Below are positions 37,121 to 54,212 of a stretch of 64,000 nucleotides of DNA, piece after piece. The translations under genes were made by a program, and so were the position numbers. The notes beneath the pieces were generated by a model. It saw only the letters and a program-made list of their open reading frames with translations, ran no database searches and was not told where the DNA came from. Each line of letters starts with the position of its first letter. The first letter of the stretch is position 1. The stretch is taken from IMG/VR virus record IMGVR_UViG_3300025922_000001; one strand, written 5' to 3'. This DNA is from an uncultured virus (IMG/VR IMGVR_UViG_3300025922_000001) (taxonomy: Duplodnaviria; Heunggongvirae; Uroviricota; Caudoviricetes).

Positions 37121-37155
37121 TCACCACGAACCACCCCGGATCCAAGGAGAGACTC

Positions 37156-37799: not shown

Positions 37800-37836
37800 G
37801 TTTACACCGAGTGCGTGATGTGATAGATTTGTCTTA
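37800..37836 (+). promoter_or_regulatory. repeated early-type promoter
   Basis: GTTTACA-N17-TAGATT-tGTCTTA. Confidence 0.75.
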
Positions 37837-38146
37837 GCACCACGAAGGCCCCAGGAACTTAGGAGAGTATGATGCTATACGAGTACAAGCTTACGTTTTC
37901 GAAAGAGCGCAACGCTTTTGTGGATGAGACGGCGACGATCACCATCAATTCGACCATTGACCCCGCGACTCTCGTTCTCCGCGGTGAGTACACCTTGGGC
38001 GATTACGAGTACGTGCAGGGGAAGCTGGGTGAGCTCGAAGCACTTGCTCGCTCTCACTACGATGACATCATCGGGCTGCACGACTTCACGTCCGTTGAGT
38101 GCCCTGACGGCACGGTCGTCGAGCCGAGCTGATCATCACATTGCCT

Positions 38147-38183
38147 GTTTACATCATCACACGATCCTGTTAGATTTGTCTTA
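38147..38183 (+). promoter_or_regulatory. repeated early-type promoter heading the hammerhead 1-3 transcript
   Basis: GTTTACA-N17-TAGATT-tGTCTTA. Confidence 0.75.
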
Positions 38184-38426
38184 ACACCGAAAACGACGTA
38201 GGAGAGCATGATGCTGAAGACGATGCAGGTTGGCACGCACGGCGCGTTCTCGTTTGACGAGAAGATTTACAACGCGATGATCAAGCTGCCTCGTCCGACG
38301 CTGTACGCGACCGTGAAGAACATCTACGATGGCACGGGCGTCACCGGTCTCGCGACCCTCAAGAAGGCTGAGCTTGCCGCGATCGTGTCGGACGTCGCGA
38401 CCGCCATCGCGTAGCGTTACTACCCA

Positions 38427-38486
38427 GGACGAAACCCACGGCCGAGAGGTAGCGGGTCTGCGGGTGATGCCCGCACTGATGAGTCC
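38427..38486 (+). ncRNA. hammerhead ribozyme 1 (type II), cleavage after C38458
   Basis: GGAC-GAAA-CCC...GGG-TC / TGCGGG-tgatg-CCCGCA / CTGATGA-GTCC. Confidence 0.92.
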
Positions 38487-38503
38487 GATGTAAGGAGAGC
38501 AAG

Positions 38504-38650
38504 ATGATTCCTGAGAACGTGCTGACCCTGCCTGCGGCACTGGGACTACACAGTCCGAAGAAGAAGTGTCCTGACTGCGGTGGCTCGGGCGTCAGCCCCG
38601 ATGGCGACGAGTGTCAGTACTGCTCGGGTCAAGGCTGGACGCACCACTAG
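38504..38650 (+). CDS. 48-aa Zn-finger peptide flanked by hammerheads
   Basis: AGGAGAGC RBS; CPDCGGSG...CQYCSGQG. Confidence 0.75.
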   Translation: MIPENVLTLPAALGLHSPKKKCPDCGGSGVSPDGDECQYCSGQGWTHH

Positions 38651-38719
38651 CTATGATGAAACACCCACGCCGGGAGGCGTTGGTGTCCACCGGTAAAACC
38701 GGTGCTGATGAGTCCATAG
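38651..38719 (+). ncRNA. hammerhead ribozyme 2 (type II), cleavage after C38687
   Basis: CTATGAT-GAAA-CACC...GGTG-TC / CACCGG-taaaa-CCGGTG / CTGATGA-GTCCATAG. Confidence 0.85.
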
Positions 38720-38736
38720 GAATTTAGGAGAGCAAG

Positions 38737-38850
38737 ATGCTTCCCAAGAGTATGATGAAGACCGGCGGCAAGGAAGACGAGGGTACGGCCGACGCCCGCA
38801 GGGAGCTCGAGAAGATGATCGAGGCGGAAGAGAAGAAGCAGGGCCAGTAG
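38737..38850 (+). CDS. 37-aa charged peptide flanked by hammerheads
   Basis: TTTAGGAGAGC RBS; TAG stop overlaps next ribozyme. Confidence 0.7.
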   Translation: MLPKSMMKTGGKEDEGTADARRELEKMIEAEEKKQGQ

Positions 38851-38911
38851 GACGAAACGCGCACGCTGGGAAGCGTCCGCGTCCACGGGTAAAGCCCGTG
38901 CTGATGAGTCC
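38850..38911 (+). ncRNA. hammerhead ribozyme 3 (type II), cleavage after C38883
   Basis: GGAC-GAAA-CGCG...CGCG-TC / CACGGG-taaag-CCCGTG / CTGATGA-GTCC. Confidence 0.92.
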
Positions 38912-39641
38912 AGGGAGAACGCATGAGTGATCACAATGCAAAGCAGGCCATCCCATCCTTGCTTCAGGCGGCGATGTACGTGTCGCCGACAGGCACCGAG
39001 CAGGCAGCGTTTGGCGCGCTGGTCAACAAGATGGAGGGTGCGGGAGAGCCGTCGACCGTCATCGCGCTCGCACTTGCTGACGCGATCAGCGACGGTGTCC
39101 GGGCGGGCAACTGGCCGAAGGTCGATGGCTGATGGTCGACAAGCCTGCTCCGAAGGAATCGCTCCGCGTCGCGACCAACCTTCTACTGCGCTCAGCGCTT
39201 CTGATTGCACCCGACGCGGCATCGCGCGACTTTCTGACGGGTATTGTTACTGCCGGACGGAAGCTAGCTCCGAGGGTGTCTGAGGCAGATGAGCCTAGCA
39301 TCATTCGATCTCTTGTCGTTGCACTGGACCAGGGTGTCACACACAGGAAGTGGCAACGGTGACGGGGCTGATGGGTAACATCATCTGGACCGTGCTATTC
39401 GTTGGCTCGAGTGTGGGCATCATGATCGCACTCGTACGACGCGCACGGAGGCGATGATGGCGAAGATGTTAAGTCGTGACCAGCTGCTTCTCTGGATCGG
39501 TGAGGATCCTCTTGGCCTGCGGGCCAACCTCGCTGCGTGGGCTGAACAGGCTGTCTCAGACATCCACGCGAACGTCGAACCGGGGTCCGAGCAGTTCTAC
39601 TCCTTGGTGCTGGCGGAGGTTCTCAGAAAGTGACTGACGTC

Positions 39642-39679
39642 GTTGTACACAATCACGTTAACGTGATACTGTAGTCTTA
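39642..39679 (+). promoter_or_regulatory. repeated early-type promoter with ATCAC-N6-GTGAT palindrome
   Basis: TTGTACA-caATCACgttaacGTGA-TACTGT-AGTCTTA. Confidence 0.75.
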
Positions 39680-39721
39680 GCACCGGAAAACAGCCCGAGT
39701 GCAGGACACAAGGAGAGAATC

Positions 39722-39892
39722 ATGCGCGAGCGCTACGTGATTTACGTTCACACGAGCCCCCACTTCGAGCCCACTGAGCTGTTCGTCTTCGCTGACAGCC
39801 CGGATGATGCGCTTGACACCGTGACGCACATGGTCAAGCAGCTAGGCGGCGACATCGGCAAGGCGCATGATGTGACGGTTAACGTCGACTAG
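39722..39892 (+). CDS. 56-aa hypothetical protein
   Basis: AGGAGAG RBS; stop overlaps hammerhead 4. Confidence 0.7.
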   Translation: MRERYVIYVHTSPHFEPTELFVFADSPDDALDTVTHMVKQLGGDIGKAHDVTVNVD

Positions 39893-39953
39893 GACGAAAC
39901 TGCATTGCCGGGAGGCGACGCGGTCCGCGGCTAACTGCCGCGCTGATGAGTCC
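39892..39953 (+). ncRNA. hammerhead ribozyme 4 (type II), cleavage after C39925
   Basis: GGAC-GAAA-CTGC...GCGG-TC / CGCGGC-taact-GCCGCG / CTGATGA-GTCC. Confidence 0.92.
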
Positions 39954-39970
39954 AGGGAATCAAGGAGAGC

Positions 39971-40147
39971 ATGATGCCTACGACGAAGTATGTTCTTCTG
40001 GTTGTGCGTGAGGACAACACGCAGCATGAGATTTCTGCGTGGGGTGTTGATGGGAATGACGCGGTTAACGTTCTTAAGTCAGTGATCGCATCAGCGGGTG
40101 GAGATGCAGGTATGGTGCTCATCACCGTCATTGATGAAGATTACTAG
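39971..40147 (+). CDS. 58-aa hypothetical protein flanked by hammerheads
   Basis: AAGGAGAGC RBS; stop overlaps hammerhead 5. Confidence 0.7.
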   Translation: MMPTTKYVLLVVREDNTQHEISAWGVDGNDAVNVLKSVIASAGGDAGMVLITVIDEDY

Positions 40148-40208
40148 GACGAAACTACACCACCGTGAGGTGACGTAGTCCGTGCGTAACGCGCACGCTG
40201 ATGAGTCC
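40147..40208 (+). ncRNA. hammerhead ribozyme 5 (type II), cleavage after C40180
   Basis: GGAC-GAAA-CTAC...GTAG-TC / CGTGCG-taacg-CGCACG / CTGATGA-GTCC. Confidence 0.92.
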
Positions 40209-40227
40209 AGGAATTTAGGAGAGCACG

Positions 40228-40362
40228 ATGCTGAGCAAGATCATCGAACTGATCCTCCGCCCCGTCGCACCGGGCAACAGTGGTGAGCGTCGCTGCCCCG
40301 AGTGTAGCGGCGTGAACGGGAACCACAAGGACGACTGCTCGTTCAACCCGAAGAACTGGTGA
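40228..40362 (+). CDS. 44-aa Cys/His peptide
   Basis: TTTAGGAGAGC RBS; CPEC.....H...C. Confidence 0.65.
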   Translation: MLSKIIELILRPVAPGNSGERRCPECSGVNGNHKDDCSFNPKNW

Positions 40363-40378
40363 CGTAGATCCACGCGTG

Positions 40379-40417
40379 AAGGCCTCGGTCCTCCTTCCCG
40401 GAGGGCCGGGGCCTTTG
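40379..40417 (+). terminator. intrinsic terminator
   Basis: AAGGCCTCGGTCCTCC-ttccc-GGAGGGCCGGGGCCTTTG. Confidence 0.65.
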
Positions 40418-40433
40418 TGATATAGTCGACCGC

Positions 40434-41024
40434 GTGGGAACAAACGGGTATCAGCGAGCGACTGACGTCTCGTACGGATCAGATAGTGTCATCCTTGAGG
40501 TCGGTGTTGAACGCGACTCGGTGGGAGATGGCTCCACAACGTTTCTCTCGCGGGTAGGTCCGCCGGTGCACGTCATCGACGTGGAGCCGACACAGGTGGA
40601 GCGTGCGAGACAGATTCCTAACGTGACAGCATATCTTGGTGGTGCTGAGCATGTGCTTGAATACTGGGAACTGCCCATCGGCTTTGCATGGCTTGACGGG
40701 CATGACTGGCCTTACGAGCACGCAACCGAGGGCATGTGGGACGCCCAGGAGCGAGAGTATCTCGCACGTGGGCAGGCGTATTCGCGTGAAGCAAGCCGCG
40801 CATCGCATCTCACCATTGCGAAGCTTGTCGAGCCGTGGATCATCCCAGGTGGCATCATCGCATGTGATGACACGTGGGTGCTGCCATCGGTGCTTGACCC
40901 CACCCCCGGACCTGGGTGGAATGGCAAGTGTGGTGCTGCTGTGCCTTACCTGCTCGATCACGGGTTCAAGATTCTTGAGCAGGGTGACATCTACTTCGGA
41001 CGTGTCATTCTTCAACGAGAGTAA
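40434..41024 (+). CDS. class I SAM-dependent methyltransferase-like protein
   Basis: VILEVG, VIDVE, FAWLDG, PGGIIACDD, GK. Confidence 0.6.
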   Translation: MGTNGYQRATDVSYGSDSVILEVGVERDSVGDGSTTFLSRVGPPVHVIDVEPTQVERARQIPNVTAYLGGAEHVLEYWELPIGFAWLDGHDWPYEHATEGMWDAQEREYLARGQAYSREASRASHLTIAKLVEPWIIPGGIIACDDTWVLPSVLDPTPGPGWNGKCGAAVPYLLDHGFKILEQGDIYFGRVILQRE

Positions 41025-42064
41025 GGATGCATGATGGAAGATCAGTGCAACGACGCAACATGCGACATTCGTGGTGAGCACCCGGTGCACACACCTGAGA
41101 CTCGCTCCACGTCATGGTACAACAACCCAGCGCGCTTCTTTAAGCGCATGCCAGGTGGTGGTACCGTGTATGTACAGCTAACCTAGACAACCAGACCCGT
41201 GTGTGGTATGATTGTCTTGAGCGACCCGGTGTCCCCTCTGGACCGCCACGGGCCCGGGTCCCCGAACTTGCGGAACCTAGGAGAGCGTGATGGCGTATTT
41301 TGTGTATAAGCGTAGTGATGGCTACGTAGGCGTGGTCAATTCGAGCGAGCAGCTCGCGCCGGATGAAAAGCCTAAGCGTTTGCGCAATCGCACGATCGAG
41401 GATATTCACATCACGTTTACGGTGCTGCTTCAGACTGACGATTGGGATGAGGCAGTCCTGCTTCTTCAACACGAGCGTGGTGTCATCGACGTCATCGTCG
41501 ATACGAAGCCGCCGGCTGACCCGGATGAAGTGAGGCGACGTACGATTGATGACATTGCCGTTCGACTCGCCGCAATCGAGCGTGTGTTGATGCAGCTTGA
41601 CGCAGAGATCTCGGAGTGCCACGGGTATGCGAGTCCGGCGCAGCTGATGGTTGAGTTGGCTGGCGACTGCGTGAAGAAGGCCATGCGAGCGAATGGGAAG
41701 GAGAGTAAGTGATGGACGAGCTGATCAGCGAATTCGCTGCGAAGCTGCGCGAGATCTACAAGAAGCAGACCGCGGGTGACTTCACATTTGAGGGTGTGCT
41801 CGCTGAATTCGCACGACGAGAGTCAGAACTCGTCATCGCTGAGCGAATCAAGAACTTGGAGAAAGCGCACTGATGCGCAAGGCTTTCGTTATCATTGCAC
41901 TCGCACTTGCGTTGTGCGCGTGCGAACGTCCGGTGAAAACTCCTACGCCTAAGCCAAGTGTCGTCATCGTTCCTACCGAAGTCGACACGCGGTGTGAGGA
42001 AGATGAACCATGCTGGGTGTGTTCGGCAGCCGACGATCGCTGCACATCACGTAGCTTCTGACAC

Positions 42065-42101
42065 GTTTACTTTGATCACGCAACCTGATACTGTGGTCTT
42101 A
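42065..42101 (+). promoter_or_regulatory. repeated early-type promoter
   Basis: GTTTACT...TGA-TACTGT-gGTCTTA. Confidence 0.7.
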
Positions 42102-43584
42102 TCACCGAACGACACGAGCACTAGGAGAGCATGATGCAGGCACTCACCCTGGACGTTTGCTTCGGGCCCGAGGAAGAGGTGACCGACGTGGTTGACGCGC
42201 TGGTACACGAGACTGATGTGACGGCCGACTTCACGGGCGTTCACGTGGCCGGTGGCTGGCCCGAGATCAAGTTCACCGGCACGCAGGAGGACCTGATCAT
42301 CGTGGCCAACCGCTACGCTCTCGACACGGGTGACGCGAACGAAATCATCACGCGCATCACGTCGGCCTAGCGCGCAACACGCTCCCCTCGCCGTCACGCA
42401 TTCGTGCGTGGCGGCTTGTGGGAGTAGAAGGACTTTCGTTCGTGACTTAGGAGAGCAACATGTCCACGTACCGGTATAACGTCACGTTCCGCAAGGACAC
42501 CAACCCGGCGTTCGAAACGCTTGTGCCGACTGACCACCCGGCAAACCCGGCCGACATCGATGAGCATGCCAACGCGATCGTTGATTTTGCGCGTGCGCTC
42601 GTCGCGGCGAACCAGCCAGAGATCAAGCTTGACGGGTACTCGGCGTACTGCATCACGCGCAATGGAAGGACGATTTGGAGGTTCTGGTGAAGAACACGTC
42701 CCCGTACGTTCTCGTGTTTGAGAACGACTACAGCAACATCTTCTCATTGGTGATGAAGGTCGACTTCGAGAAGATGCCGTGGGACATCGACGACGGGTTT
42801 ACTGCGTTCGTCGCGTACGCGTACGACCGTGCCGCCGACATGAATATTGACCTGAGTGACTACACGCTCAAGAGCATCGCATACGGCGGGATGGTCATCA
42901 TTTCGTTCGACTAGATCACGCTTTCCTGATACAATAGTCTTAACACAACGACTTGATCGTTAGGAGAGCACGATGAACACGTACACGCTTGTTTGGCGTC
43001 ACGACTTCATTTCCGCGGTACGCATCACGGTTGACATCGACTCGGATGATGTTCCTTTGGCCGTCATGTTGGATGCGACTACCATCATGAGCGAGGCCGA
43101 CGATTTCATCTTCGGTTCCGAGCTTGATATGCGCGATTACACGCTCGTGGAGATCAAGTTTGGCGGCCTGCCCATCAAGCAATTCGCGTGATTTCACGAT
43201 GATGGGGTGCGCCTGTTGCACCCCATCATTTAGTGTGATACAATAAACATATCAACACGAATACCACAGGAACCCAGGAGAGCATCATGCCGAAGGCGCC
43301 CGTTACCCACTTCATCGTTTCGTTCGTTCGCCAGAACGACATCAACACGCTCATCACGCTTCCCGTCGCGTACGAATGCGAGTGGACCGAGACCGAAGAG
43401 TACGCGGAGATCATCATCGAGTGTGCGTACGCGGTTGCCGCGACGCGTGGGACCGATCTCGACAAGCACGAAGCATTCATGATCTCGCACGAGCACGGTG
43501 ACTTTCGCTTCAGCCGTTGAGTGAGGGTGGCTGATGTCGCTCTCATCACCGAATGAAATGCCCGTGGTAGGATACTCGTTAACT

Positions 43585-43639
43585 GGTCGAAACGCCTGCG
43601 TGCGGGCGTCGCCGGGAAAGAGACCGGCCCGAAGAGACC
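43585..43639 (+). ncRNA. variant hammerhead ribozyme (core CCGAAGA, U4C), putative cleavage after C43610
   Basis: GGTC-GAAA-CGCC...GGCG-TC / GCCGG-gaaagaga-CCGGC / CCGAAGA-GACC; precedes AGGAGAGC RBS. Confidence 0.7.
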
Positions 43640-44679
43640 CCTAGGAATCGAGGAGAGCGTGTTCGAACGAAAGGTCAATGTCCGGCAGCGTGAACTGGCT
43701 AAGAGCATGGTCGTGAAGCACGATGGTGCGTGGGTTCGCATCGAGCACATCGACCCGGTGATGCCAGGCTCAAATCAGCGCAAGGCCACGTGCACGTTAC
43801 GGCATCAGATGCGCTCGGGCGCATTCACCGCGTGGTTCGTCGAGGGCGAGCACAAGGTGGTGGCAAGCACTCTCCCACTGGACTTCGCGATCAAGCCAAG
43901 CCCGGTACCGGTCAAGCACGAACAGGTCCAGAGAGGAGTGCACAACGTCGTCAACGGCGAGGTGAACGGCCCGCTGATTCAGGCAGGCTCCATCGACGGG
44001 CAAACTGTCACCGACTTCTTCAAAGATAAGTGAGGTACACGCTGTGAAGAGGGTTCTTTTCATCGTCTGCTGCGTCGTGGGCGGGCTCTTCTTGATCGAG
44101 ATCGCGATTCCCGGACACTTCGCACTGCTCGAAGCGTACTTCACCGGCGTCGGTAACCTCATCGGTGTTCGCGTCGGCAGCTAGGTACCCCAGCACCTCC
44201 TCCTGATTGCCTCGCCCGAAGCAGCGGCAACTGCTTCGGCCGGGGCTTTAGGCGGTTGAGAGGAGGTCTCAGATGCCCGCTCAGGGGAGACTGAAGCCGG
44301 TTTGGAGATGGTTGGCAGTTCGACTAGCCGACCTGGAGGTGCAGCGAATCAAGATTGACCTTGGCTTGAACACGACCATGTGGGACGCCGAGATTCCGCC
44401 GAGAATCGTCGCCGACGCGCAGGAGCAGTGGGAGGCAGTCCGTGATTTGCCCTGATCATGATCGTCGAGCAGCGATGAGTGACGAAGAGTTTTGGGATGA
44501 GGTGCTTGACGTTTCGCTTGAGTTTGAAGGGCCGATGATCGAGCCCGAAGACGAGATCGTTGAAAAGCTTTCACTCACGGGCTCATCATGCGTTCAGTGC
44601 GGCTCCACTGGACCCTGCGCATACGACGCTGAGGGACGTCCCCTCATTCACGCAGATTCACAGGAAGTAGGATAGTAGG

Positions 44680-45147
44680 ATGGGATACTATGGGCGTAGC
44701 CCTGGCTTAAGCGTTGGCGAAGCTGCGGCGGTTTCTGTCCTAGGACTAGGCGCACTTGCGGTCGTCATAGGCATCATCGCTGTTGCCACAGGTGAAGTTG
44801 CTGGCGATGAAGCTGACGCACTCGCTGTATGCACGAGTCCAGATGGTTTCACGCGTGTCGACGATTCACAGTGTGGTGATTACGGTGATGATGGCGGGAT
44901 TATCTACGCCGGTGGCTACCACTACATGGTCTTTGACACGCGCACGTATCGTGGTGACATTCCCGCGGTGGGGCAGAAGATGCCCGTAGGAAATCCCGCC
45001 GGGTATGTTCGTACGTATAGGGTCGCTGACACAGGCAAGACGGTAGGGACGAAGGTGCCTGCCACGGGTGGCAAGACGAGCACGATTTCGCGCGGCGGGT
45101 TTGGCGTGAAGGCCGGCGCAAGCGCTGGAACGAGCGGAGGATCATGA
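44680..45147 (+). CDS. membrane-anchored protein with DUF1190-like RGGFG tail
   Basis: N-terminal TM, C....RVDD..C, TISRGGFG...GGS. Confidence 0.6.
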   Translation: MGYYGRSPGLSVGEAAAVSVLGLGALAVVIGIIAVATGEVAGDEADALAVCTSPDGFTRVDDSQCGDYGDDGGIIYAGGYHYMVFDTRTYRGDIPAVGQKMPVGNPAGYVRTYRVADTGKTVGTKVPATGGKTSTISRGGFGVKAGASAGTSGGS

Positions 45148-45830
45148 CTGACGAGTTTGAAATCGAGCTTGGTGACAACATGAAGTGGCATGATTTTAAT
45201 ATTCCCGACGACTACGTCCTCCCACCGCGCGAGTGTTGCGGTACTGCTGACGACGCGAGCATCGACATCGCAGTTGATTGCGAGAAGGGCAACTGCACCT
45301 GGCTGTACTGCCGCTGTGGCCGCTCTACGCAGTCCGGCTACGGTACCTTCGGTTGTCCCTGCGTGGAGAACGCGAGTGGACACTGGCGAGTGTCTGAGCG
45401 TAAGATGATTTCCGTCAAAAAGGTTGCACTGTCAACCACCAAGAAGCGAGCGAGGCAGGGACGTGGCTGACGAAGAACACACAGGCATTAACTTCTTCAT
45501 TCAAGCCGCGGCAGCGATGCGTGAACTACCGGGCGCTGACGCTACGTCAGAGTATGTCGTGTACTCGAAGACAGACGCTAAGGTCACGGCGGCAATCGTG
45601 GAGGCATCACCTGAGCCGATCAAGGCGACGAATTACTTTGAGCAGGCGGAAGCCGCGGCCCCTCTCTTCGCTGAGATGTGTAAGCGAGCGAAGATTGCCG
45701 ATCACGACGGTTACCTCACGCTTGAGCTGGAGACTGACGATTCACCCGAGGGTAAGTTCATCACTTTCGTTGAGGCGGGAGATGATCTCTACACGCTTCT
45801 TGGTGAAGTGGCTGCCCAGTGGGGTGAGGG

Positions 45831-46139
45831 TTGATGGCACGCAAACTGACGAGCACCGAGCGCGATGCGCTTCACGCGCCTGCCGCTCGACCACAAAGTT
45901 GGAGCGGACCCAGGCACAACCCAAAACCAGCGACACCGACTGACGAACTCACACTCATCGAGACCGTCATTCTTCGCCGTGTTGCCACAGGTGAAAAGAC
46001 GGGCGCGATAGGCGCAGCGCTTAGCATGTCAAGGCAGACGGTCTACACGCACATCGTACGTGCGATGGCGCGGTTTGGCGTTGAAACGCGTGAGGAACTT
46101 CTGGACCTTCCTCGCGTGCAGGAATTGCTGGAGCAGTGA
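45831..46139 (+). CDS. LuxR-type HTH protein
   Basis: LTLIETVILRRVATGEKTGAIGAALSMSRQTVYTHI...FGV.TR. Confidence 0.8.
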   Translation: MMARKLTSTERDALHAPAARPQSWSGPRHNPKPATPTDELTLIETVILRRVATGEKTGAIGAALSMSRQTVYTHIVRAMARFGVETREELLDLPRVQELLEQ

Positions 46140-46423
46140 ATAGGCGGAGAGAGTACAACGGTCTTCGTCAGCCACAGCCATGGCATAATCCCAGGGCTAT
46201 CGCGAAGCGGGCACGTGGCAACGCTCTCACCTTTCACCAGATCGTTATTCTTCGACGTCTTCGCGCCGGTGAAACTCAGGCAAGCATCGCGCGTGCACTT
46301 AATTACGCGTCGGGCGTGGTGAACAAGCATCTCAGAATGGCGATGGAACTTCACCCAGAGTGCACGACATATGAGGAGCTGTGGAACCTGCCTGAAATTC
46401 GAGCCCAGCTGGACGGTGAATGA
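46136..46423 (+). CDS. LuxR-type HTH protein (tandem paralogue)
   Basis: LTFHQIVILRRLRAGETQASIARALNYASGVVNKHL; shares Q.W..P, LP.....L with neighbour. Confidence 0.75.
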   Translation: MNRRREYNGLRQPQPWHNPRAIAKRARGNALTFHQIVILRRLRAGETQASIARALNYASGVVNKHLRMAMELHPECTTYEELWNLPEIRAQLDGE

Positions 46424-48808
46424 TACCCGTGATTAGTTGCTACTTGTGAGGTGATGTGGTAAAGTCTTCATTACCAACCCGTAAAGATTAATAGGAGAGC
46501 ATCATGAGCCGCCACCGTTCGCACGTCGTCCGGCCGATTCGGCCTGTGACCGTCGTCAACGCCATCATCACATCCGCATTCGCCGGTGTCGTTCTCGGTG
46601 TCGTCAAGCCCCTGGGTCCGCTCTTCGCTTACATGATGGGAATGTGATATGGACGATCTCCCGGAGATTATAGCGCTTGACGCCGAGCAGGCGAAGGAGC
46701 TGCTGTGTCTCTTTCGAAAGCAGGTGATGGCACGCGACTGGTTTCACCTGATGACAGATGAACAGCTGAAGACGGCTTGTCACGAGCGCATGTTGCGGAC
46801 GGTAGGAGATCGTGCGACGGTGATTGCACGACTGGACCGTCACGTCGCGCGTGGTGGCGGAGTTATCCCGGGGAGGATCGCATGAATTTCATGGAATGGC
46901 TTCACGCGCAGGAGAATGTCAACGACGAGCTCGTCAATGAGATTCTTGACTATGAATCGAGCATCGACAGCGAGTATGGTTGCGTGCATAGCACCAGCGA
47001 GATCGCTGTTGGTATGTGTCGCAGGGTTCAGCCGCACGACATTCGCGCTCTGCAAATCATCGCAGAGCAGGCAGGATGGCCGAAGGAATGGAAGTTTTCT
47101 CGTTCGACGTGACGGACGTGTACGACAGGATCTGAGGAGAGATAGTCATATGACAAACGAGATGCATCCGCGTGCTAAAATTGTGAATGAGGCACGTCGC
47201 GCGCTTGATGTTGCGCTTGGGGCGTGGTTCAAGAAGCATGACTTGACAACCGCTGAAGAAGTCATGATTCTTACGGCCACATTCAACGGCATCATTGTTG
47301 GCGCGATGCGTCGCGCTGTGAAGGAGGAACGTGAGGTAGGCAACGATGCCTCACCTGACTTCCCACCGTGAACTGATTTCCTGGGGGTTTCGTGCTGACA
47401 CGACTGTGCCGCTGGCAGCGTCGACATAGCTCACTTGTGACGGGTCTGCTGATGACGTTCCTCTGGACCTGCCTAGGAATTGCGTCGGCATCCGTCATGG
47501 TGAAGATCGGGTTGTTTCCCGTCGCGCTGTGGAAGCTGTTCGACACGCTTAACACGTACCACATGAAATTGACGAGTGCGAAGGAGGAAACACCGCACAT
47601 CGGAGGAGGCATTAATTCGTCAGTTGCCTCATTGGACAAAGAACATGCACATGCCTGAAGGAGAAAAGTGTCTCAGCATATTGAAGAATCATCACACTAC
47701 GTTGCTCGCATCGTCGTTGAGCGTGTTGATCACAAGTTGATCGAGACTTACGGTGGAGTCGGCAACTCGAAGATCAAGGAGCCAAAGCGCACCGTCACCG
47801 AGCTGACGGCACTGACGCTCAAGTCGGACGAGCTCGATGCACTCGTTGAGCGCGTGGGTAGGCATCTTGCTCTCGTGGAAGACATCGAGAGCGTCGACCC
47901 AGTGAAGCCGAGGGGTACGAGGTCCAGTGAGTAGGACAAAGCGCACAGCAGAAAACACCGTCGTCATGCAAGAGTTTGATCAGGTGATGATGTGCCACCC
48001 GAACCCAGATAAGGTGTGTCTCGCTGGTGGGTGTATTCACTGCGAAGACAGTGCTACGTGGTGGACCGTTGATGCGATTCGTGCGTACGCTGTGACGAAA
48101 GATCAAGCGTACTGGGAAGAGTATCTTTTCGGATACCAGCACTGGTGGTGGAACTTGCCCAAGAAGATGGGCGACACCGGTGAACCGTTCTTTGGTGCGG
48201 GTAATGGCTGACATCACGCATGAAGACCTCGTCATTGCATTGTGCGTCTCGCATGATGCGGTGACGAGGGCGCAGAAGTTGGCGTGTCGTACATGTAGTA
48301 GGCGTGCGCATCTCGTTCTTGAGCTCGAACCTGAGCACCGCGTCTCACCTGTGCTGAGGACCGTCTTCAATACCGATCATGGTCATGCGAATCAGCGTGG
48401 CAACTCGCGTTGTCTTTCGTGTAGCTTTAACGTTGCTCGCGCACTTGATGCAATCGAGCGTAAGAGATTGGGTTAATATGCGCACCATTCAAGAAGTCAT
48501 CAATTCGCTCAACGCACTCAATGCAGATGGCATTCACGACTTGCTCGCCGAGAAAGGCATCAGGGGTCGACGACACATCACGACCGACTGTCCCATCGCG
48601 AACTACGTGCGGACTGAGACGGATATATTCGTCCAGGTGGGTGCCTACACGCTCAATGATCTCTCATGCGTACCCGTCACACCACGCACATACGATCTTG
48701 GCAACTCCATCACTGACTTCATCGTGGCATTCGATGAAGAGCAGTACCCGGACCTCATTCGCTCATGAGCCTATTTGCATAAGTCCCGTCGCCTGTTAGG
48801 ATAAGACT

Positions 48809-49168
48809 ATGAACGCGACCACGCTCGAAGCTCCCGCCCTCGCTCCCATCCCGTGTCTTGAGTGTGGGCGGATGCTTCGCTCCGTCAAGTCCATCAAGCG
48901 TGGTCGCGGCGCGGCCTGCCAGACGAAGGTCAACAAGGCAGCGAAGACCGTCGACTTGAGTGACTTCAAGCCGGCCCAGGTCCGGTCAGCGCTGGACCTG
49001 ATCGAGGACGCGGCGATCGTGAAGGTTCGCCCGAACGTGTTCCGTTCGGTTTCGACCGATGGCACTGCTGAATACCTCACGCACCCGGCGGCGTGCAACT
49101 GCCCCGCCGGACTCAAGTCCCGCAACTGCTACCACCGCGCCGCTGCGCTCATCCTGCTCGCGGCCTAG
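48809..49168 (+). CDS. DUF6011-like plus SWIM Zn-finger protein, probably leaderless
   Basis: C..CGR.L....S..RG.G..C and CNCPAG....CYH; ATG lies just after promoter -10 TAGGAT. Confidence 0.75.
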   Translation: MNATTLEAPALAPIPCLECGRMLRSVKSIKRGRGAACQTKVNKAAKTVDLSDFKPAQVRSALDLIEDAAIVKVRPNVFRSVSTDGTAEYLTHPAACNCPAGLKSRNCYHRAAALILLAA

Positions 49169-50510
49169 GAAACGAGGAGAGAAATGGCTCACCTGAAGTG
49201 CACGCACGAGCGACGTGTGGTTGTCGTTCGTGACATCGAGAAGAATGCCGTGATTCGTCACCGTGGTGACGGCAGCAAGTGCAATGCGCGATACGTCGCG
49301 ATTGGCACTGTCGTGTTCGAGCCGACTGTGCACGGCGTAGCAGTCACGGCAGACACATCGCAGGACAAGATGTTCGGGCCGCTTGGTCAGTCGGTCAACA
49401 TCGGTGAGTTTGGCGAAGTCGCCACGCGTGCCGTCAAGGCGCGGCGCAAGGTCAAGAAGACGCGCGCACAGGAGCTGGCCGACTACGCGCAGAAGGTCGT
49501 CAACGCCGCTGACCGCCGGGCACGTAAGCGAGAGCGCTCGAAGAAGTGATCGCGTTCATCGCACAGGGCCAACAGCCGACCGCACTGAATGGGATCGGTT
49601 CTTTCGTTCTCATCCTCGCCGCGCTTCTCGTCGTCGCGGCGCTCGTGGGGAAGAAGAAATGAACACGGTCATCGAGGACAGCCAGAGCTCTCCGGCATCA
49701 CAAGGGCTTGGCGTTGTCATTATCGTCGTCATCATCCTCGTGATCTTCAAGCTTTTCGACAAGAACGGATGGAAATGAGCTCTTTCGAGTATCACCCCAC
49801 AACGTGGCCTGACGTGGCGTTCTTCGTTGTCATCGGCCTCACGATTTTCGGTGTCGTGTGGGCGCGCAACCGGAGGCGGCCGTGAACGACCAGCACATGT
49901 ACGATCTCTCCACACCCACGCATCCGGACCACCTCGCTGACATCACCGCGGGATTGCGTCGGCCGGCGCGACGAAACCAGCACGGCCCCACGTCGGATGA
50001 TTTCATTGCTCACACGTTCGATGAAGTCAATCATGATGCCTGGGAGGGCGAGGGTGGCGCGGTGATCGACTCATGATCTTATCTCAGGTGTTGTTCGAGT
50101 GGGGAAACGAGCAAAAGGGCGGGATCGTCGTCATCGTGTTGGTGGTGGCCGCGCTCATCGCCCTTGGAACGTCGAAGAAAAAGTGACGCATAGGTGGTGA
50201 TCGAACGTGAACGAACCGTGGATGATTCTTGAGCCCGATGCCGAGGGAAACTACACAAGTGCGCTCCTCGTTGTGGAGCGTAGCGAGTACGTGAAGTATC
50301 TTCGTGGCGAACAAGCATCATTCACGAAGCGCACGTTCACGTCAAGAGAAGACGCCGAAGAGAACTGCCGTTACCGCAACCGCGGGTGGCGCTGAGTACC
50401 CTCTGGACCGCTCAGTCTCTTACGGGAGCCCGAGCGGTCCAGGGGTTGTAGTTGCTGGTGGTCAGCCAGATGTGACTGTCCGAGGATGTCTGAAGTCATG
50501 GGACTTGCTT

Positions 50511-50548
50511 GTTTGCATTAGTCACAGTAGCCTGATACTGTAGTCTTA
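50511..50548 (+). promoter_or_regulatory. repeated early-type promoter heading the second hammerhead-rich transcript
   Basis: GTTTGCA...TGA-TACTGT-AGTCTTA. Confidence 0.75.
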
Positions 50549-50869
50549 CAAGCAAAGCAGCAAAACGAAAACAGGAGAGCATCATGGACATCGCAACCCG
50601 TAACGACGCTCGGACGCTCGCGCAATTCGCTGCGATGGATCGCATCCCGGCTGCCACGCTTAAGCAGGCGACCGAGTTCGGGATTCACACTGTGAGCCGT
50701 GATGAAGAGATGTACGAGCAGGTCGCGGGTATGTTCACCGCGATCAAGCAGTTGGCTGCGGTAAGCGGCACGAGCGCCCGGGAAATTGGCCAGGTGGTCA
50801 ACACGGAGCTGATGAAGCGCTACGCGGCCGAGCTTGCGTCGATGGGCATTACGGTTTGATGGCTGTGCA

Positions 50870-50919
50870 GGGCGAAACGCCGTGAGGCGTCCAGCGGTTA
50901 GGCCGCTGCTGATGAGCCC
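50870..50919 (+). ncRNA. hammerhead ribozyme 6 (type II), cleavage after C50891
   Basis: GGGC-GAAA-CGCC-gtga-GGCG-TC / CAGCGG-ttagg-CCGCTG / CTGATGA-GCCC. Confidence 0.92.
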
Positions 50920-51129
50920 ACGTGAGGAGAATATCATGGGGATGATGGCAAGCGAGCGCAACCGAGGCGTTCTCAACAAGGACAACCCGTGGGACGACGA
51001 CGGCTTCTCGAGCTACCGTCGCTTCAAGAAGCGCGGTGGTTCTGGCTTGAGTGGTAAGCGTCCCCTCCGACGCGCCATTCGCGCGAAGGAGAAGACGCTC
51101 TGGTTCCGGGACGAGTGAGATTACTTATA

Positions 51130-51167
51130 GGGCGAAACACCATGAGGTGTCCGCTGCTAACGAGCCT
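51130..51167 (+). ncRNA. degenerate hammerhead (G5A core, stem I collapsed)
   Basis: GGGC-GAAA-CACC-atga-GGTG-TC / cgctg / CTAACGA-GCCT. Confidence 0.65.
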
Positions 51168-51182
51168 GGGAAGTAGGAGAGC

Positions 51183-51665
51183 ATGAAGAACGATGTGCAC
51201 GTGCGGGCCGTTGACCCGCGACGCACCGAAATCAGCTGTGGTGACTGGAAAGCCATCATCGTCAAGCGAGTGCATGACACTGATCGTCACTGGAACTCGA
51301 TGACTCGAGTATATGGTGCCATCGCTACGTTCGCACCTGATCTCGAAGAAAAGATCTACGAGAACGCATGTAAGCCTGCGTGGGGCGACGGTGACGGCTT
51401 CACCGAAGACGAGCGCGACGCGCACATGAAGGCATACCGAGCGCTCAAGGCGAAGGCGCTGAAGGACGTGAAGTTGGCGCTCATCGAGCCGATCGCACTC
51501 CTTCACGCGTACGGGCTTGGCCGACTTGGCATCGACCCGCCAACCATGCACTTCTCGTCGAAGGCCGGCTGCTCGATGTGCGCGTGTAGCCCCGGCCACA
51601 TCTTGAGCACTCGCTGGACCCTCGTCGGTTCGCCTGTGGATGTCTGGTTTGAACTGATCAAGTGA
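51183..51665 (+). CDS. hypothetical phage protein
   Basis: AGGAGAGC RBS; FS.KAGCSMCACSPG motif. Confidence 0.7.
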   Translation: MKNDVHVRAVDPRRTEISCGDWKAIIVKRVHDTDRHWNSMTRVYGAIATFAPDLEEKIYENACKPAWGDGDGFTEDERDAHMKAYRALKAKALKDVKLALIEPIALLHAYGLGRLGIDPPTMHFSSKAGCSMCACSPGHILSTRWTLVGSPVDVWFELIK

Positions 51666-51770
51666 ACACTAGGAGAGCACAATGATTCATGGTGGATGTG
51701 GTTGTGAATGCTGTAGTGGCGGCTTCTGTGGTGGCTGCGGTCACGCGGGATGTGGTGGTCGATAACTGAA

Positions 51771-51820
51771 GGCCGAAACGTCGGGAGACGTCGCAGCGTG
51801 ACGCGCTGCCTGATGAGGCC
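51771..51820 (+). ncRNA. hammerhead ribozyme 7 (type II), cleavage after C51792
   Basis: GGCC-GAAA-CGTC-ggga-GACG-TC / GCAGCG-tgacg-CGCTGC / CTGATGA-GGCC. Confidence 0.92.
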
Positions 51821-51838
51821 AAGAGTGAGGATAGACCG

Positions 51839-52294
51839 ATGACCGATGTTGCGGAAACCTTCATCGAAATCCTGAAGAAAGCGCGTGTGGAGTTGACCAC
51901 GGGCTTGGGTAAGGACTTGCCTGCGGGCGATGGGTTCGAGACGAGGGAAGCGCTCGAAGCACGCGTTTCCGAGATCGAGACGGAGATCGTGGTCCCGTTG
52001 CGTGCACTCATCGATGATCTCACGGAATACGTCCACGAGGTGAGTGGCAAGTGCGATGATGTTGCCACGGCGGTGGAAAGTGCTGACACTGCGTCCGATG
52101 AGTTCGACACAGCGAACGAAGCACGTGAAGAATTCGACGGCGATGACGAGAGCGACGAATTCGAAGAGCTTGACAACGAGGTCACCCGCACCGAACGCGC
52201 GATGGAAGAGGCGGACGAGGAATTGTCCGGCTATCGTGACGAGCTCATCGACGCCATCGCACAGCTCGTCGAGTTGATTGGCGGGGGCGAGTAA
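51839..52294 (+). CDS. highly acidic coiled-coil protein
   Basis: Asp/Glu-rich helical ORF directly after hammerhead 7. Confidence 0.65.
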   Translation: MTDVAETFIEILKKARVELTTGLGKDLPAGDGFETREALEARVSEIETEIVVPLRALIDDLTEYVHEVSGKCDDVATAVESADTASDEFDTANEAREEFDGDDESDEFEELDNEVTRTERAMEEADEELSGYRDELIDAIAQLVELIGGGE

Positions 52295-53023
52295 TGGGCA
52301 CCACGCAGATCGGCACGGTTGATGTGCTCTTCCCTCGCACGTACAGCCTCGACCCCACTTCGACGAGTAACGACGGCGCCGCTGTTCTCGTACAGCCGGG
52401 TTCGTACCCTGTGTACAGCGACGGATGGTCGCACTACTGGCTGATGACCGGTAAAATCAATCACGCCGGAATGCACCGGCTCGGTGATGGTGCATTCACT
52501 CATCACGCCGGTGACTGGATTGATGAAACGTCGCCTGATGTTACGTTCATGTCGGGTGTCTTCGGTCCAGATGAATTCGCCGACTTTCTCGATAACGACC
52601 CGGTGTGCCAGCCTGGTGCTGCGCAACGCCTCGTGTTTCACGTGGAGCGACCCGATGAAGAGAAGAACGAGGAGGGAGAGTGAAGGGCACCCACATCAGA
52701 AAGATCCTCGCCCGACACGAGCGCGTGGTCTCGAAGTTCGGCGATGAGGCACGGGTGCGACGCATGCTCTTCCGCGCGGTGCCGAACATCCTCGCGCGTG
52801 ATGCATCAAACCGGGCAAACGATCTCATCCGCTTGCTTAACGATGTGCCGGCGCTCATCGAGGATATCTACGAGTTGCGCGCCGAGCGCGCGAGGCTCAG
52901 CCGAGAGCTTCGTGAGCTACGTGCACAGGTGGACAACACGATCATCGAAGATGATGGCGTGGAAGTCGAGCGCGAGCCTGGCATCGGCGATGTTCTCCAA
53001 GCAATGGGTTACCTCGACTGAAA

Positions 53024-53073
53024 GGACGAAACCCCGGGAGGGGTCGGCACGTGATGCGTGTCCTGACGAGTCC
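53024..53073 (+). ncRNA. hammerhead ribozyme 8 (type II), cleavage after C53045
   Basis: GGAC-GAAA-CCCC-ggga-GGGG-TC / GGCACG-tgatg-CGTGTC / CTGACGA-GTCC. Confidence 0.92.
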
Positions 53074-53575
53074 GGAGGAGAGCACCATGTCCGTGAAGGC
53101 CACATTGATCGTGCAGACAAATGATCACGCAGAGGGGAGCGTGCGGATGGAGCGCACCATTGAACGCGGTGGTGATAACTATCGCTTCTACCCGAGTGAG
53201 GCCGTGGCCGCAGCCATTGATCTCGCCGAGTGGGCGAGCGACCAGCTGACGAGGCTTGCCGGCGGCAGGGCCAACACGCTCTCTGACGTGGGTGTGAGGA
53301 CACTAGCCAACGATGAAGAGCTGCTGACGCTGCGCTTGGTCGAGCAGTCATACAGGCGCCTCACGACCGGGGACAGCGTGTACGTCAGCGCTGAACAGGT
53401 CAAGGAGTGGCGTCGGCGCGACGCTCGTCTGACGGCCATGGAAGCCGCGGGCGTGGACAACTGGGAAGGAATGGACCACGTCGTCTTCTCGGAGGACTGA
53501 GGCGTTGTTTGCATAACGACTTGGGTCCTGATAAGATTACCTTGTAAGCGAAACCAAAACAAGGAGTGGTATTCG

Positions 53576-53809
53576 GTGAAGGTTTTCCTCACTGGACTCG
53601 CGGTCATTGCCGCGCTGGCGGGCGTTACTGCCTGCGAGGGTACTCGTACGCACGTCACTGACAAGAAGGGCGCAGTCAACGAAGCGCTTTGCTCGGGTAG
53701 CACGCCGTACATCATGTTCACCAAGACGGGCGACGCGGGCGAGATGGTCGTCTGCGTGACCCAAGCAACGTACGACAAGTACAAGATCGGGGACGTGTAC
53801 AGGGGCTGA
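53576..53809 (+). CDS. small lipoprotein
   Basis: VTAC lipobox; CV....YDKYKIGD.Y. Confidence 0.65.
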   Translation: MKVFLTGLAVIAALAGVTACEGTRTHVTDKKGAVNEALCSGSTPYIMFTKTGDAGEMVVCVTQATYDKYKIGDVYRG

Positions 53810-53901
53810 TGAAGTGGGTCGCCGTCACATTCGTGGCGGCGACCCATTCACGTGAAGTTGCACTAGCATCTCGATCCGTGCTTGACAAGCTAGGAGAGTA
53901 A

Positions 53902-54156
53902 GTGCACTTACGAGTTATGTACACCGCCGTCATCGTCGCGATGGCTCTTGCCGGTTGCGCGAAAGCGGTGACAGGCGTCGTGATCGAAAAGCATGACGCG
54001 CGCTCGGGCGTTCCGCAAGTGTTCAACTGTGCGAAGACCGAGTGGCTGCTTGTGATCGATCAGGGCGAGCGCACCAAGGCGTCCGATCGGTTCAAGAAGA
54101 AGTGCGTGTCGTTCACCGTCGCAACACAGTACGAGATCGGCAAGAAGTACCCGTAA
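53902..54156 (+). CDS. small lipoprotein (paralogue of 53576-53809)
   Basis: LAGC lipobox; CV.......YEIG..YP. Confidence 0.65.
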   Translation: MHLRVMYTAVIVAMALAGCAKAVTGVVIEKHDARSGVPQVFNCAKTEWLLVIDQGERTKASDRFKKKCVSFTVATQYEIGKKYP

Positions 54157-54162
54157 ATTACA

Positions 54163-54212
54163 GTCCGAAACGCCGGGAGGCGTCCGTGAGTAAGTCTCAC
54201 GCTGATGAGGAC
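54163..54212 (+). ncRNA. hammerhead ribozyme 9 (type II), cleavage after C54184
   Basis: GTCC-GAAA-CGCC-ggga-GGCG-TC / CGTGAG-taagt-CTCACG / CTGATGA-GGAC. Confidence 0.92.

Follow-up and report, generated by a model that had tools for sequence, protein, structure and literature searches.

Hammerhead ribozymes have been described in clusters in phage DNA. Perreault et al. 2011 (PLoS Comput Biol, PMC3088659) reported prophages in which multiple hammerheads flank individual genes or short gene blocks, and proposed that long phage transcripts are processed into single-gene mRNAs; three tandem arrangements cleave in vitro and one set in vivo, and most type II hammerheads are described there as using a pseudoknot. 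Natural hammerheads are sped up by a contact between a loop 1 U and a loop 2 R...A motif (Dufour et al. 2008, PMC2632901). RNase J1 acts on the 5'-OH product left by a further self-cleaving leader RNA, the glmS ribozyme (Collins 2007, summarised in PMC3328962).

The window, as we call the whole 64,000-nt stretch analyzed here, comes from an uncultivated soil phage in which the hammerheads sit among small genes. We identified 9 intact type II hammerheads, 1 core variant (43585), and 1 truncated remnant (51130), all 11 on the coding strand and occupying gaps between a stop codon and a Shine-Dalgarno (SD) site (Table 1). A first-pass annotation of this DNA had listed the 9 intact copies, and their coordinates, + strand orientation, and type II order were confirmed in the sequence, with cleavage positions identical to those predicted here; its list did not include the variant and the remnant. 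Its view that no such systematic array was known proved wrong, given the clusters of Perreault et al. 2011 (PMC3088659) and 2 other IMG/VR contigs, G005 with 11 type II copies in 5 kb and G007 with 9, each set in the same orientation. The layout had thus been described for phages in 2011 and is not novel in kind. The prophage clusters described there likewise hold several hammerheads, type II among them, that share one orientation between phage genes, and core variants and decayed copies occur there too. The window differs in holding 9 intact and 2 degenerate copies against the triple arrangements tested there, in showing no pseudoknot between loop I and the 3' flank, and in belonging to an uncultivated phage whose DNA polymerase has its nearest relatives among phages of Actinobacteria.

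Table 1. Hammerhead elements and promoter-like repeats of the window (all on the + strand; HH1 to HH9 are type II hammerheads; R1 and R2 are covariance models)
Feature	Position	Predicted cleavage after	R1 (bits)	R2 (bits)	RF02276 (bits)	Upstream stop	Start codon	Remarks
Promoter-like repeat	38148..38176							TTTACA, 17 nt, TAGATT, with TG; upstream of HH1-HH3 unit; consensus match, candidate only
HH1	38427..38486	38458	80.1	38.3 (E 1.3e-7)	26.1 (below threshold)	TAG 38412-38414	ATG 38504	stem II GGAC/GUCC; long stem III, GAGA loop
HH2	38651..38719 (4-bp register 38654-38715)	38687	71.8	29.0 (E 3.6e-5)	20.8	TAG 38648-38650, abutting	ATG 38737	
HH3	38850..38911	38883	80.0	44.3	23.1	TAG, its G being the first G of HH3	ATG 38923	
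Extended -10-like repeat and 16-bp palindrome	39652..39683							upstream of HH4-HH5 unit; repeat families D11-D13; putative
HH4	39892..39953	39925	77.1	33.5	absent at E<=10	TAG, overlapping	ATG 39971	
HH5	40147..40208	40180	77.4	44.0	absent at E<=10	TAG, overlapping	ATG 40228	
Full-length core variant	43585..43639		31.9 (E 3e-7)	25.7 (E 2.8e-4)			GTG 43659, after SD	CCGAAGA replaces CUGAUGA (C at position 4)
Copy of the 39652 -10-like repeat	50521..50552							upstream of HH6 and remnant unit; families D11 and D13; putative
HH6	50870..50919	50891	65.7	51.4 (E 4.6e-11)	27.5	TGA 50857-50859	ATG 50936	short stem III; stem II GGGC/GCCC
Truncated remnant	51130..51167		26.9 (E 1e-5)	13.9 (E 0.36)		TGA 51116-51118	ATG 51183	stem II 5' arm, GAAA, stem III, GUC retained; same type of slot as intact copies
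HH7	51771..51820	51792	64.1	45.9	20.8			stem II GGCC/GGCC
HH8	53024..53073	53045	63.2	37.7	absent at E<=10			core CUGACGA
HH9	54163..54212	54184	65.4	42.7	absent at E<=10			stem II GUCC/GGAC

All 9 intact elements follow the order stem II 5' arm, GAAA, stem III, GUC, 6-bp stem I, CUGA(U/C)GA, and stem II 3' arm, with the core and all 3 helices complete in each. The stem II pairs quoted earlier (GGAC/GTCC, GGGC/GCCC, GGCC/GGCC, and GTCC/GGAC) are correct, and HH2 deviates from them: it has a G.U pair adjoining the core, and its stem II, as read from the sequence, extends to 7 bp with a single bulged C; the minimum-energy fold of HH2 alone retains stems I and III and, of stem II, five outer pairs. 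Elements begin -1 to 12 nt from the stop codon, with 3 overlapping the TAG and HH2 abutting it, and end 11-19 nt before the start codon in all 11 cases. The predicted downstream piece opens in the hairpin of stem I, at 39-49 nt ahead of the start. The proposed placement between stop codon and next ribosome-binding site, with 3 overlaps, therefore held for all nine; of the further idea that the elements punctuate the operons, the inter-cistron location stood and the extent did not, only 8 of the 22 AGGAGAGC ribosome-binding sites on the + strand between 35.4 and 55.4 kb being preceded by a hammerhead. The 43585 variant keeps its 3 stems intact, with a loop I lacking the initial U and a C after stem II, and is probably slow or inactive. 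The 51130 remnant has lost the stem I 5' arm and loop, and its core reads CUAACGA. Outside 38.4-54.2 kb of the window, and on its minus strand, neither R1 nor R2 returned a convincing hit.

The data support the interpretation that these are type II hammerhead motifs selected for structure and placed between cistrons on the coding strand. A loose core pattern (GAAAC..GTC..CTGANGA) matched the window 10 times against 0.37 expected, a count reached by 0 of 100 shuffles; the tenth match (61291) was found by neither covariance model and was taken as chance. Selection on structure, as first proposed from the differing but complementary stems, is borne out across the 9 copies, in which pairing holds in 98.1% of base-pair cells and compensatory changes are seen in 15 of 20 pairs, values matched by 0 of 500 shuffles, and RNAalifold independently recovers the same three-way junction. 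Further, R2, built solely from 11 copies of an unrelated viral contig, recovers all 9 hammerheads (E 4.6e-11 to 3.6e-5), and in an alignment of 32 model matches from four sources 98.5% of cells pair, with compensatory changes in 16 of 19 pairs. Against this, in single-sequence folding with 25-nt flanks the minimum-energy fold of several copies contains no complete hammerhead junction, and that of HH7 misses it even without flanks.

The Rfam result counts against the assignment. No hammerhead was reported in the window at the gathering threshold; in E-value mode RF02276 (Hammerhead_II) listed 5 of the 9 copies at 20.8-27.5 bits, all below the gathering score of 37, and HH4, HH5, HH8, and HH9 went unlisted even at E<=10. 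The window copies share with the Rfam family the circular permutation, with stem II open, and the core, and 4 of the 5 listed copies align to the model end to end. They differ in their 4-bp stem II and in the absence of the conserved 3' tail, which in the Rfam consensus forms pairs with loop I; a type II pseudoknot was likewise not seen by eye in the element flanks.

The unpaired nucleotides are more constant than the stems. In the 9 canonical window copies every catalytic-core position except N7 is invariant while the stems vary freely, and across four viral records only 3 of 29 canonical copies depart from the core beyond N7 (two G005 copies have C at position 4, and one G003 copy has U at position 3). 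The loop I 5' U, the A immediately 5' of stem II, and the purine immediately 3' of it are present in 29 of 29 copies, a count that is not independent because many copies are duplicates or counterparts of one another. These positions fit the tertiary contact between loop 1 and loop 2 of Dufour et al. 2008 (PMC2632901), which may form here too. The type I and III hammerheads described there have the same loop 1 5' U and the same purine and A at the ends of loop 2; in the window loop 2 is open, and each of the two mRNA flanks starts with one of these nucleotides, the purine or the A.

The motif is conserved at matching junctions in relatives. G002 (98% complete) shares its DNA polymerase with the window phage at 93% amino-acid identity, with flanking DNA at 67-92% identity in BLAST, mostly 70-86%, and all 7 of its hits fall inside the matching region. 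It holds counterparts of 6 of the 9 canonical elements and of the 43585 variant, whose core is identical there (L159:8849-8901). Counterpart cores differ at N7 only, and in the 6 canonical comparisons 15 model pairs have changed, of which 14 still pair. Changes range from none in HH9, which has an identical copy, through differences confined to loop I and N7 in HH3, to HH7, in which 5 of 6 stem I pairs are altered on both sides with pairing preserved in all. SD-like sites follow the hammerheads in G002, in the relative G003, and in G005. The arrays of G005 and G007 show the same motif and orientation as the window, and no homologue of the window phage's DNA polymerase or primase was detectable in either. 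The G005 copies are far more alike than the window copies, which points to recent duplication.

We favor, with moderate confidence, the reading that the elements are cis-acting type II hammerheads in multi-gene messages of a probably early small-gene region and cut these transcripts into gene-sized mRNAs. When transcription had passed the upstream stop codon by about 60 nt, each element would fold into the three-way junction and cut itself after the C of GUC; with an open stem II of only 4 bp, the 2 products would be expected to come apart. The stem III hairpin and a 2',3'-cyclic phosphate would then terminate the upstream message, about 30-45 nt past its stop codon. The 6-bp stem I hairpin, with a 5'-OH and no unpaired nucleotide before it, would open the downstream message, whose uniform leader of 39-49 nt would carry the ribosome-binding site. 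If the elements cleave, long phage transcripts would probably be chopped into gene-sized messages with hairpin-capped ends and standard leaders, and neighboring cistrons would be uncoupled in stability and translation. We infer cleavage in vivo, the separation of the products, and the effect on stability and translation alike. The principle resembles that of RiboJ, an engineered insulator from a type III satellite hammerhead, and of the T7 RNase III intercistronic sites, which depend on a host protein enzyme: a cut between cistrons yields defined, hairpin-bearing message ends. Processing is dispensable at some junctions, with 51130 decayed, 43585 changed in its core, only 2 hammerheads in G003, and most ribosome-binding sites of the region hammerhead-free.

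The resistance of the 5'-OH end to RNase J, expected in the first-pass annotation, is doubtful, since the glmS 5'-OH product is an RNase J1 substrate (PMC3328962). In both cases self-cleavage in an mRNA leader, predicted for the window, leaves the coding piece with a 5'-OH; in the glmS account this end triggers decay, whereas here pairing would include the very first nucleotide of the new 5' end and might block that route. Cleavage could, on the glmS precedent, destabilize the downstream message rather than protect it, and any RNase J protection would need to derive from the terminal hairpin.

A reading that can coexist with transcript processing, and that we regard as unlikely to be the main explanation, takes the hammerhead-plus-SD units mainly as cassette boundaries, conserved linkers at which recombination between copies duplicates, removes, or exchanges small accessory genes, with RNA cleavage secondary or serving only to make incoming genes independently expressible. 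Three differences between the window and G002 start or stop at a hammerhead: a 48-aa ORF with HH2 is extra in the window between HH1 and a shared 37-aa ORF, an extra 58-aa ORF is bounded by HH4 and HH5, to both of which a single G002 hammerhead (L159:6192) aligns, and the gene after HH8 has been replaced, with the left breakpoint at the element end. The G002 hammerhead at L159:5175 lacks an equivalent in the window, and copy number in the phage's family ranges from 2 to 11. Such coincidences between breakpoints and intergenic elements are nevertheless expected because gene boundaries are where phage mosaic joints fall in any case; of the window-specific blocks the largest (about 50587-51561), which includes HH6 and has no counterpart in G002 by BLAST, is not flanked by hammerheads on both sides; and recombination requires sequence identity, whereas in the copies the catalytic core is conserved and the stem changes are compensatory.

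We consider it improbable that the elements no longer cleave and act as plain structured spacers, such as protective hairpins, RNase III or RNase E entry sites, or translation-uncoupling structures. The 43585 element, with its stems kept without a canonical core and conserved in G002, the persistence of the 51130 remnant in the same slot, and the missing canonical pseudoknot are what such spacers would look like, but conservation of unpaired catalytic nucleotides is unexpected for a mere hairpin, and the core and the U and R...A contact positions are retained while the stems are free to vary.

The phage also encodes an RtcB-family ligase (23095-24273, minus strand; phrog_1075, E 7e-145), retained in G001, G002, and G003. 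RtcB chemistry suits hammerhead ends, and 5 adjacent copies have GGAC/GUCC, or a variant, as their stem II pair, so a partnership could be imagined in which RtcB rejoins 2',3'-cyclic-phosphate and 5'-OH ends, circularizing single-gene RNAs or reversing and re-sorting the cuts. The usual role assigned to phage RtcB is the repair of cut tRNAs, and the window carries tRNA genes. This link finds no support and is highly improbable: the gene is missing from all 7 hammerhead-bearing viral records outside the phage's family (G005-G011, G005 and G007 included), three of them with a completeness of 95% or more and two with arrays of 11 and 9 copies, and G003 retains it with only 2 hammerheads. Circular or spliced products were considered in the account of Perreault et al. 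2011 (PMC3088659) and were not detected there.

Promoter-like repeats, taken here as context only, lie upstream of the units that hold HH1-HH3, HH4-HH5, and HH6 with the remnant (Table 1). The TTTACA/TAGATT repeat occurs 4 times in the window against 0.15 expected in a consensus scan, and HH7 and HH8 come after the HH6/remnant unit on the same strand. The hammerhead region probably comprises early, host-takeover genes, an assignment made from context because its genes are small with no assigned function, sigma-70-like promoter matches are repeated, and one gene encodes a T7 gp5.9-like RecBCD-inhibitor domain. The latter is the gene after HH8 (ORF 53087-53500; PF25708, 38.1 bits), and the gene after HH9 (ORF 54230-54889) is HNH-endonuclease-like (phrog_20467).

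Nine elements (HH1 to HH9), at the positions that the first-pass annotation had assigned to them, were read directly from the plus strand, and all 9 have the same order of parts: the stem II 5' arm, GAAA, a stem III hairpin, GUC, a 6-bp stem I hairpin, CUGA(U/C)GA, and the stem II 3' arm. They are type II circular permutations of the hammerhead, in which stem II is open and the other two stems are closed. The core between stems I and II (C3 U4 G5 A6 N7 G8 A9) is CUGAUGA in 8 elements and CUGACGA in 1, GAAA (G12 A13 A14 plus A15.1) is invariant, and the A15.1-U16.1 pair was identified in all 9, as was the cleavage-site triplet GUC, in keeping with the H17 requirement (not G). The pair adjoining the core, 10.1-11.1, is G-C in 8 elements and G.U in HH2. 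Stem III ends in a GNRA loop in all nine; it is long in HH1 to HH5 (38.4-40.2 kb), with 10 potential pairs and a mismatch that is conserved, and has 5 bp in HH6 to HH9 (50.9-54.2 kb). In HH2, the sequence can be read as a 7-bp stem II with a single bulged C; of these pairs, the five outer ones alone are present in the minimum-energy fold. From these sequences, all nine elements are predicted to undergo Mg2+-dependent self-cleavage, leaving 2',3'-cyclic phosphate and 5'-OH ends, and the cut sites derived here coincide with those predicted earlier in every case.

A loose core pattern (GAAAC, GTC, and CTGANGA with gaps) had 10 matches in the window against 0.37 expected, and none of 100 shuffles reached 10. 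One of the ten, at 61291, is without the helices and is found by neither of the two covariance models described below; it was dismissed as chance. In the alignment of the nine, standard pairs fill 98.1% of pair cells and both partners vary at 15 of the 20 pairs, which none of 500 shuffles equaled, with pairing of only 28-45% when partners were slid by 1-3 columns as a control. RNAalifold recovered the same three-way junction unprompted. Because a covariance model built from the nine copies (R1) matches them by construction, a second model (R2) was built from 11 copies on G005, a viral contig without polymerase or primase homology to the window's phage, and it recovered 9 of 9 window elements (E 4.6e-11 to 3.6e-5). 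An R2 match at 42290-42367 (-; 21.6 bits) lies inside a plus-strand ORF, lacks GAAA and the CUGANGA core, and was likewise attributed to chance.

The search with Rfam hammerhead models that the first-pass annotation had proposed as a check runs counter to these results. RF02276 lists 5 of the 9 elements in E-value mode (20.8-27.5 bits), with the other 4 unlisted at E<=10, and none reaches the 37-bit gathering threshold. The alignments point to the reason for the shortfall: stem II is 2 bp long in the RF02276 consensus, which also includes a 3' tail pairing with loop I, and the window copies are without this tail. At the gathering threshold, Rfam identified three tRNA matches in the window and nothing else; an HDV-like match at 50250-50320 is noise (20.3 vs 44 bits, E 7.1).

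With filters off, R1 identified two further elements that the first-pass annotation had overlooked, bringing the window to 11 elements: 9 canonical, 1 variant, and 1 remnant. The variant has three complete stems, a CCGAAGA core (C at position 4), and a loop I that does not start with U, and the remnant has lost the stem I 5' arm and loop and has a CUAACGA core. Neither core is canonical; both elements occupy the same stop-to-SD slot as the canonical copies.

Positions of the hammerhead-type elements and other features in the window and, where a locus is named, in other viral records
Feature	Position	Strand	Remarks
HH1	start 38427	+	
HH2	start 38651	+	
HH3	start 38850	+	
HH4	start 39892	+	
HH5	start 40147	+	
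HH6	start 50870	+	
HH7	start 51771	+	
HH8	start 53024	+	
HH9	start 54163	+	
Hammerhead variant	43585-43639	+	
Hammerhead remnant	51130-51167	+	
Hammerhead copies, G005	L161:2576-2637, 2813-2874	-	C at core position 4 (CCGAUGA), other features canonical; 2 of 11 copies
Hammerhead copy, G003	L160:16394-16455	-	U at core position 3 (UUGACGA)
Hammerhead, G002	L159:5175		no copy at matching place in window
Sigma-70-like promoter match	37085-37113, 37801-37829, 38148-38176	+	TTTACA, 17 nt with TG, TAGATT; 4 copies (both strands) vs 0.15 expected
Sigma-70-like promoter match	3009-3037	-	as preceding line
Related -10-like repeat	35776, 39652, 42083, 42915, 43236, 50521		
Perfect 16-bp palindrome	39652-39667		within a copy of the -10-like repeat
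tRNA genes	1222-1294, 1422-1494, 1598-1668, 20169-20241	-	tRNA-Glu, tRNA-Met, tRNA-Arg, and one odd tRNA-like call (anticodon of 2 nt)
RtcB-type RNA ligase gene	23095-24273	-	phrog_1075, E 7e-145
Thymidylate-synthase-like gene	17705-18574	-	two different genes
Thymidylate-synthase-like gene	31248-31934	+	as preceding line
48-aa ORF	38504-38650	+	between HH1 and HH2; DnaJ CXXCXGXG zinc-finger match, weak (24.9 bits vs cut-off 32.7)
27-codon ORF	51682-51765	+	own strong SD; peptide almost wholly Gly and Cys; no family match
137-aa ORF after HH8	53087-53500	+	C-terminal T7 gp5.9-like RecBCD-inhibitor domain (PF25708, 38.1 bits vs cut-off 24.5)
Sugar-gene block	58893-63703	+	three glycosyltransferases, nucleotide-sugar epimerase, UDP-glucose dehydrogenase

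The elements were compared with those of the phage's own family. In G001, the nearest record, coverage leaves out 36-56 kb of the window. Two other IMG/VR records are G002 (93 kb, 98% complete, polymerase 93% identical to the window's), with 7 canonical hammerheads and a counterpart of the variant that has the identical CCGAAGA core, all in the syntenic region, and G003 (84 kb, terminal repeats, polymerase 76% identical), with 2 hammerheads. Between counterparts, N7 is the sole core difference. The six canonical comparisons between the window and G002 include 15 changed model pairs, with 14 of these still paired, and HH7 and its counterpart differ on both sides at 5 of the 6 stem I pairs. The flanking DNA is 67-92% identical by BLAST, mostly 70-86%. 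The earlier claim of selection on structure, and not recent duplication, is borne out by these comparisons: a core changed at N7 alone, compensated stems, and diverged flanks argue for selection on the RNA fold and catalytic core and against recent copying.

At three places where the window and G002 differ, the difference has an edge at a hammerhead. The window has an additional 48-aa ORF together with HH2, missing in G002, and an additional 58-aa ORF between HH4 and HH5, where the single G002 hammerhead can be aligned with HH4 as well as HH5; the gene that follows HH8 also differs between the two records. Hammerheads coincide with mosaic joints, yet such joints fall at gene boundaries anyway.

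The window is phage DNA with a G+C content of 55%. The minus strand at 0.6-25.5 kb encodes DNA polymerase I, a helicase, an exonuclease, thymidylate synthase, and the RtcB-type ligase, and the plus strand encodes a primase, then many small genes, and then sugar-modifying enzymes. All eleven elements are on the plus strand and separate ORFs of 37-160 aa or short gene blocks. Each fills an intergenic gap, and the distance from the stop codon to the element is -1 to 12 nt except at the variant, where it is 64 nt. The distance from the element end to the start codon is 11-19 nt, and that from the predicted cut to the start codon is 39-49 nt. The flanked genes are mostly of 37-160 aa and without family assignment; two that follow hammerheads are exceptions, the gene after HH8 with its gp5.9-like domain and the gene after HH9, which is HNH-endonuclease-like.

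The SD-like word AGGAGAGC occurs 26 times vs 2.07 expected, usually 2-4 nt before ATG, with 22 occurrences on the plus strand at 35452-55373. It is associated with starts and common to most small plus-strand genes, with or without a hammerhead. Since a hammerhead-type element precedes only 8 of these 22 sites, the array, described as systematic in the first-pass annotation, is selective. The hammerhead-bearing units are preceded by the promoter match and the related -10-like repeat, and the 16-bp palindrome could be an operator. On the grounds of the promoter-like repeats ahead of the units, the small genes, and the gp5.9-like domain, it is reasonable to infer that these are early operons.

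Three features are constant across the 29 canonical copies of the window, G002, G003, and the unrelated G005: a U at the start of loop I, an A just 5' of stem II, and a purine just 3' of it. The count of 29 overstates independence because many copies are duplicates or counterparts. In HH3 to HH5, the A next to stem II belongs to the UAG stop codon upstream. Most natural hammerheads have a contact between loop 1 (U first) and loop 2 (purine first, A last), including a reverse Hoogsteen U-A pair, as set out in passages of Dufour et al. (2008, PMC2632901). The U and R...A residues are the same here, with the difference that loop 2 is opened and its end residues would be supplied by the two flanks; the residues suggest that window-type copies form this contact. 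In the two CCGAAGA position-4 variants, two of the three features are absent: the U of loop I and the purine 3' of stem II. A pseudoknot between loop I and the sequence 3' of stem II is attributed to most, not all, type II hammerheads in parts of PMC3088659; inspection by eye of 20-24 nt of either flank identified no consistent complement of loop I.

What the analysis shows is the motif, selection on it, and its placement. Each hammerhead would cut itself after GUC, co-transcriptionally or soon after transcription. Given the type II topology, the hairpin of stem III would form the 3' end of the upstream product, the downstream product would start with the very first base of stem I, and the two, joined by only four stem II pairs, would presumably separate. 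Multi-gene transcripts would give rise to shorter messages whose ends are capped by hairpins and whose leaders are uniform, and this may uncouple the fates of neighbouring genes in decay and translation. The first-pass proposal that the 5'-OH end resists RNase J is doubtful, with the 5'-OH product of the glmS ribozyme being degraded by RNase J1 according to passages of PMC3328962. Any protection of the downstream message should come from the hairpin.

A wider reading joins four proposals, and we consider it unlikely that all hold together. The type II topology may have been chosen in phage operons because no other hammerhead topology provides each product with a whole hairpin at its new end (stem III on the 3' end of one, stem I on the 5' end of the other). 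The contact between the loop 1 U and loop 2 R...A would replace the usual pseudoknot in the window's lineage, with the mRNAs supplying R and A. The hammerhead and SD would form a portable boundary unit that insulates each small gene and also serves as a joint for gene duplication or swapping. Finally, the variant would be deliberately slow or non-cutting, keeping two genes on one message.

RtcB ligase chemistry fits the ends left by hammerhead cleavage, and the RtcB gene is kept within the phage family. That the phage RtcB works together with the hammerheads is nevertheless very improbable, with RtcB identified in 0 of 7 hammerhead-bearing records outside the family (among the matches listed), G003 retaining the gene with two hammerheads only, and the window also carrying tRNA genes. 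The RtcB and tRNA genes probably serve tRNA repair and supply, unlinked to the hammerheads.

The first-pass annotation knew of no such array; the layout has been known, and its role proposed, since 2011. Passages of Perreault et al. (2011, PMC3088659) describe prophages in which single genes, or short runs of genes, often have several hammerheads beside them, with three tandem arrangements cleaving in vitro and one in vivo; they propose that long phage transcripts are thereby cut into single-gene mRNAs, and raise spliced or circular products as an idea, undetected there. Those clusters likewise have several hammerheads of the same orientation around single phage genes or short blocks; the window has eleven elements. 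Further, a pattern scan of IMG/VR identified at least 132 matching stretches and several contigs with arrays, including, among the matches listed, 11 copies in 5 kb in G005, 9 in G007, and 3 in the provirus G010; no homologue of the window phage's polymerase or primase was detected in these three. Our literature search identified no paper dealing specifically with arrays of hammerheads in phages of Actinobacteria, which does not show that none exists. The observation itself holds and extends to 11 elements, its interpretation is supported in part, and the novelty claim is unsupported: the array is nothing new in kind, and arrays of such size are easily found in viral metagenomes. In their 2019 review (PMC6765202), Weinberg et al. 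still describe as elusive the biological role that hammerheads encoded in bacterial and phage genomes have. A natural comparison set is offered by a phage family whose members have 2 to 11 copies at matching gene junctions, some intact, some variant, and some decayed; this set could test whether ribozyme cuts alter the stability or translation of flanking genes.

Near and distant DNA searches of the GenBank phage collection yielded no match to the window. The best DNA polymerase matches are to Micrococcus, Arthrobacter, and Microbacterium phages, and because the best identity is only ~36%, an actinobacterial host is a guess. DNA of the window was identified in rhizosphere metagenomes, with nine runs, all of metagenome DNA, containing about half or more of the words sampled from 38300-40300; among the runs listed for this part of the window, none is of RNA. 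The sugar-gene block possibly serves DNA or surface sugar modification.
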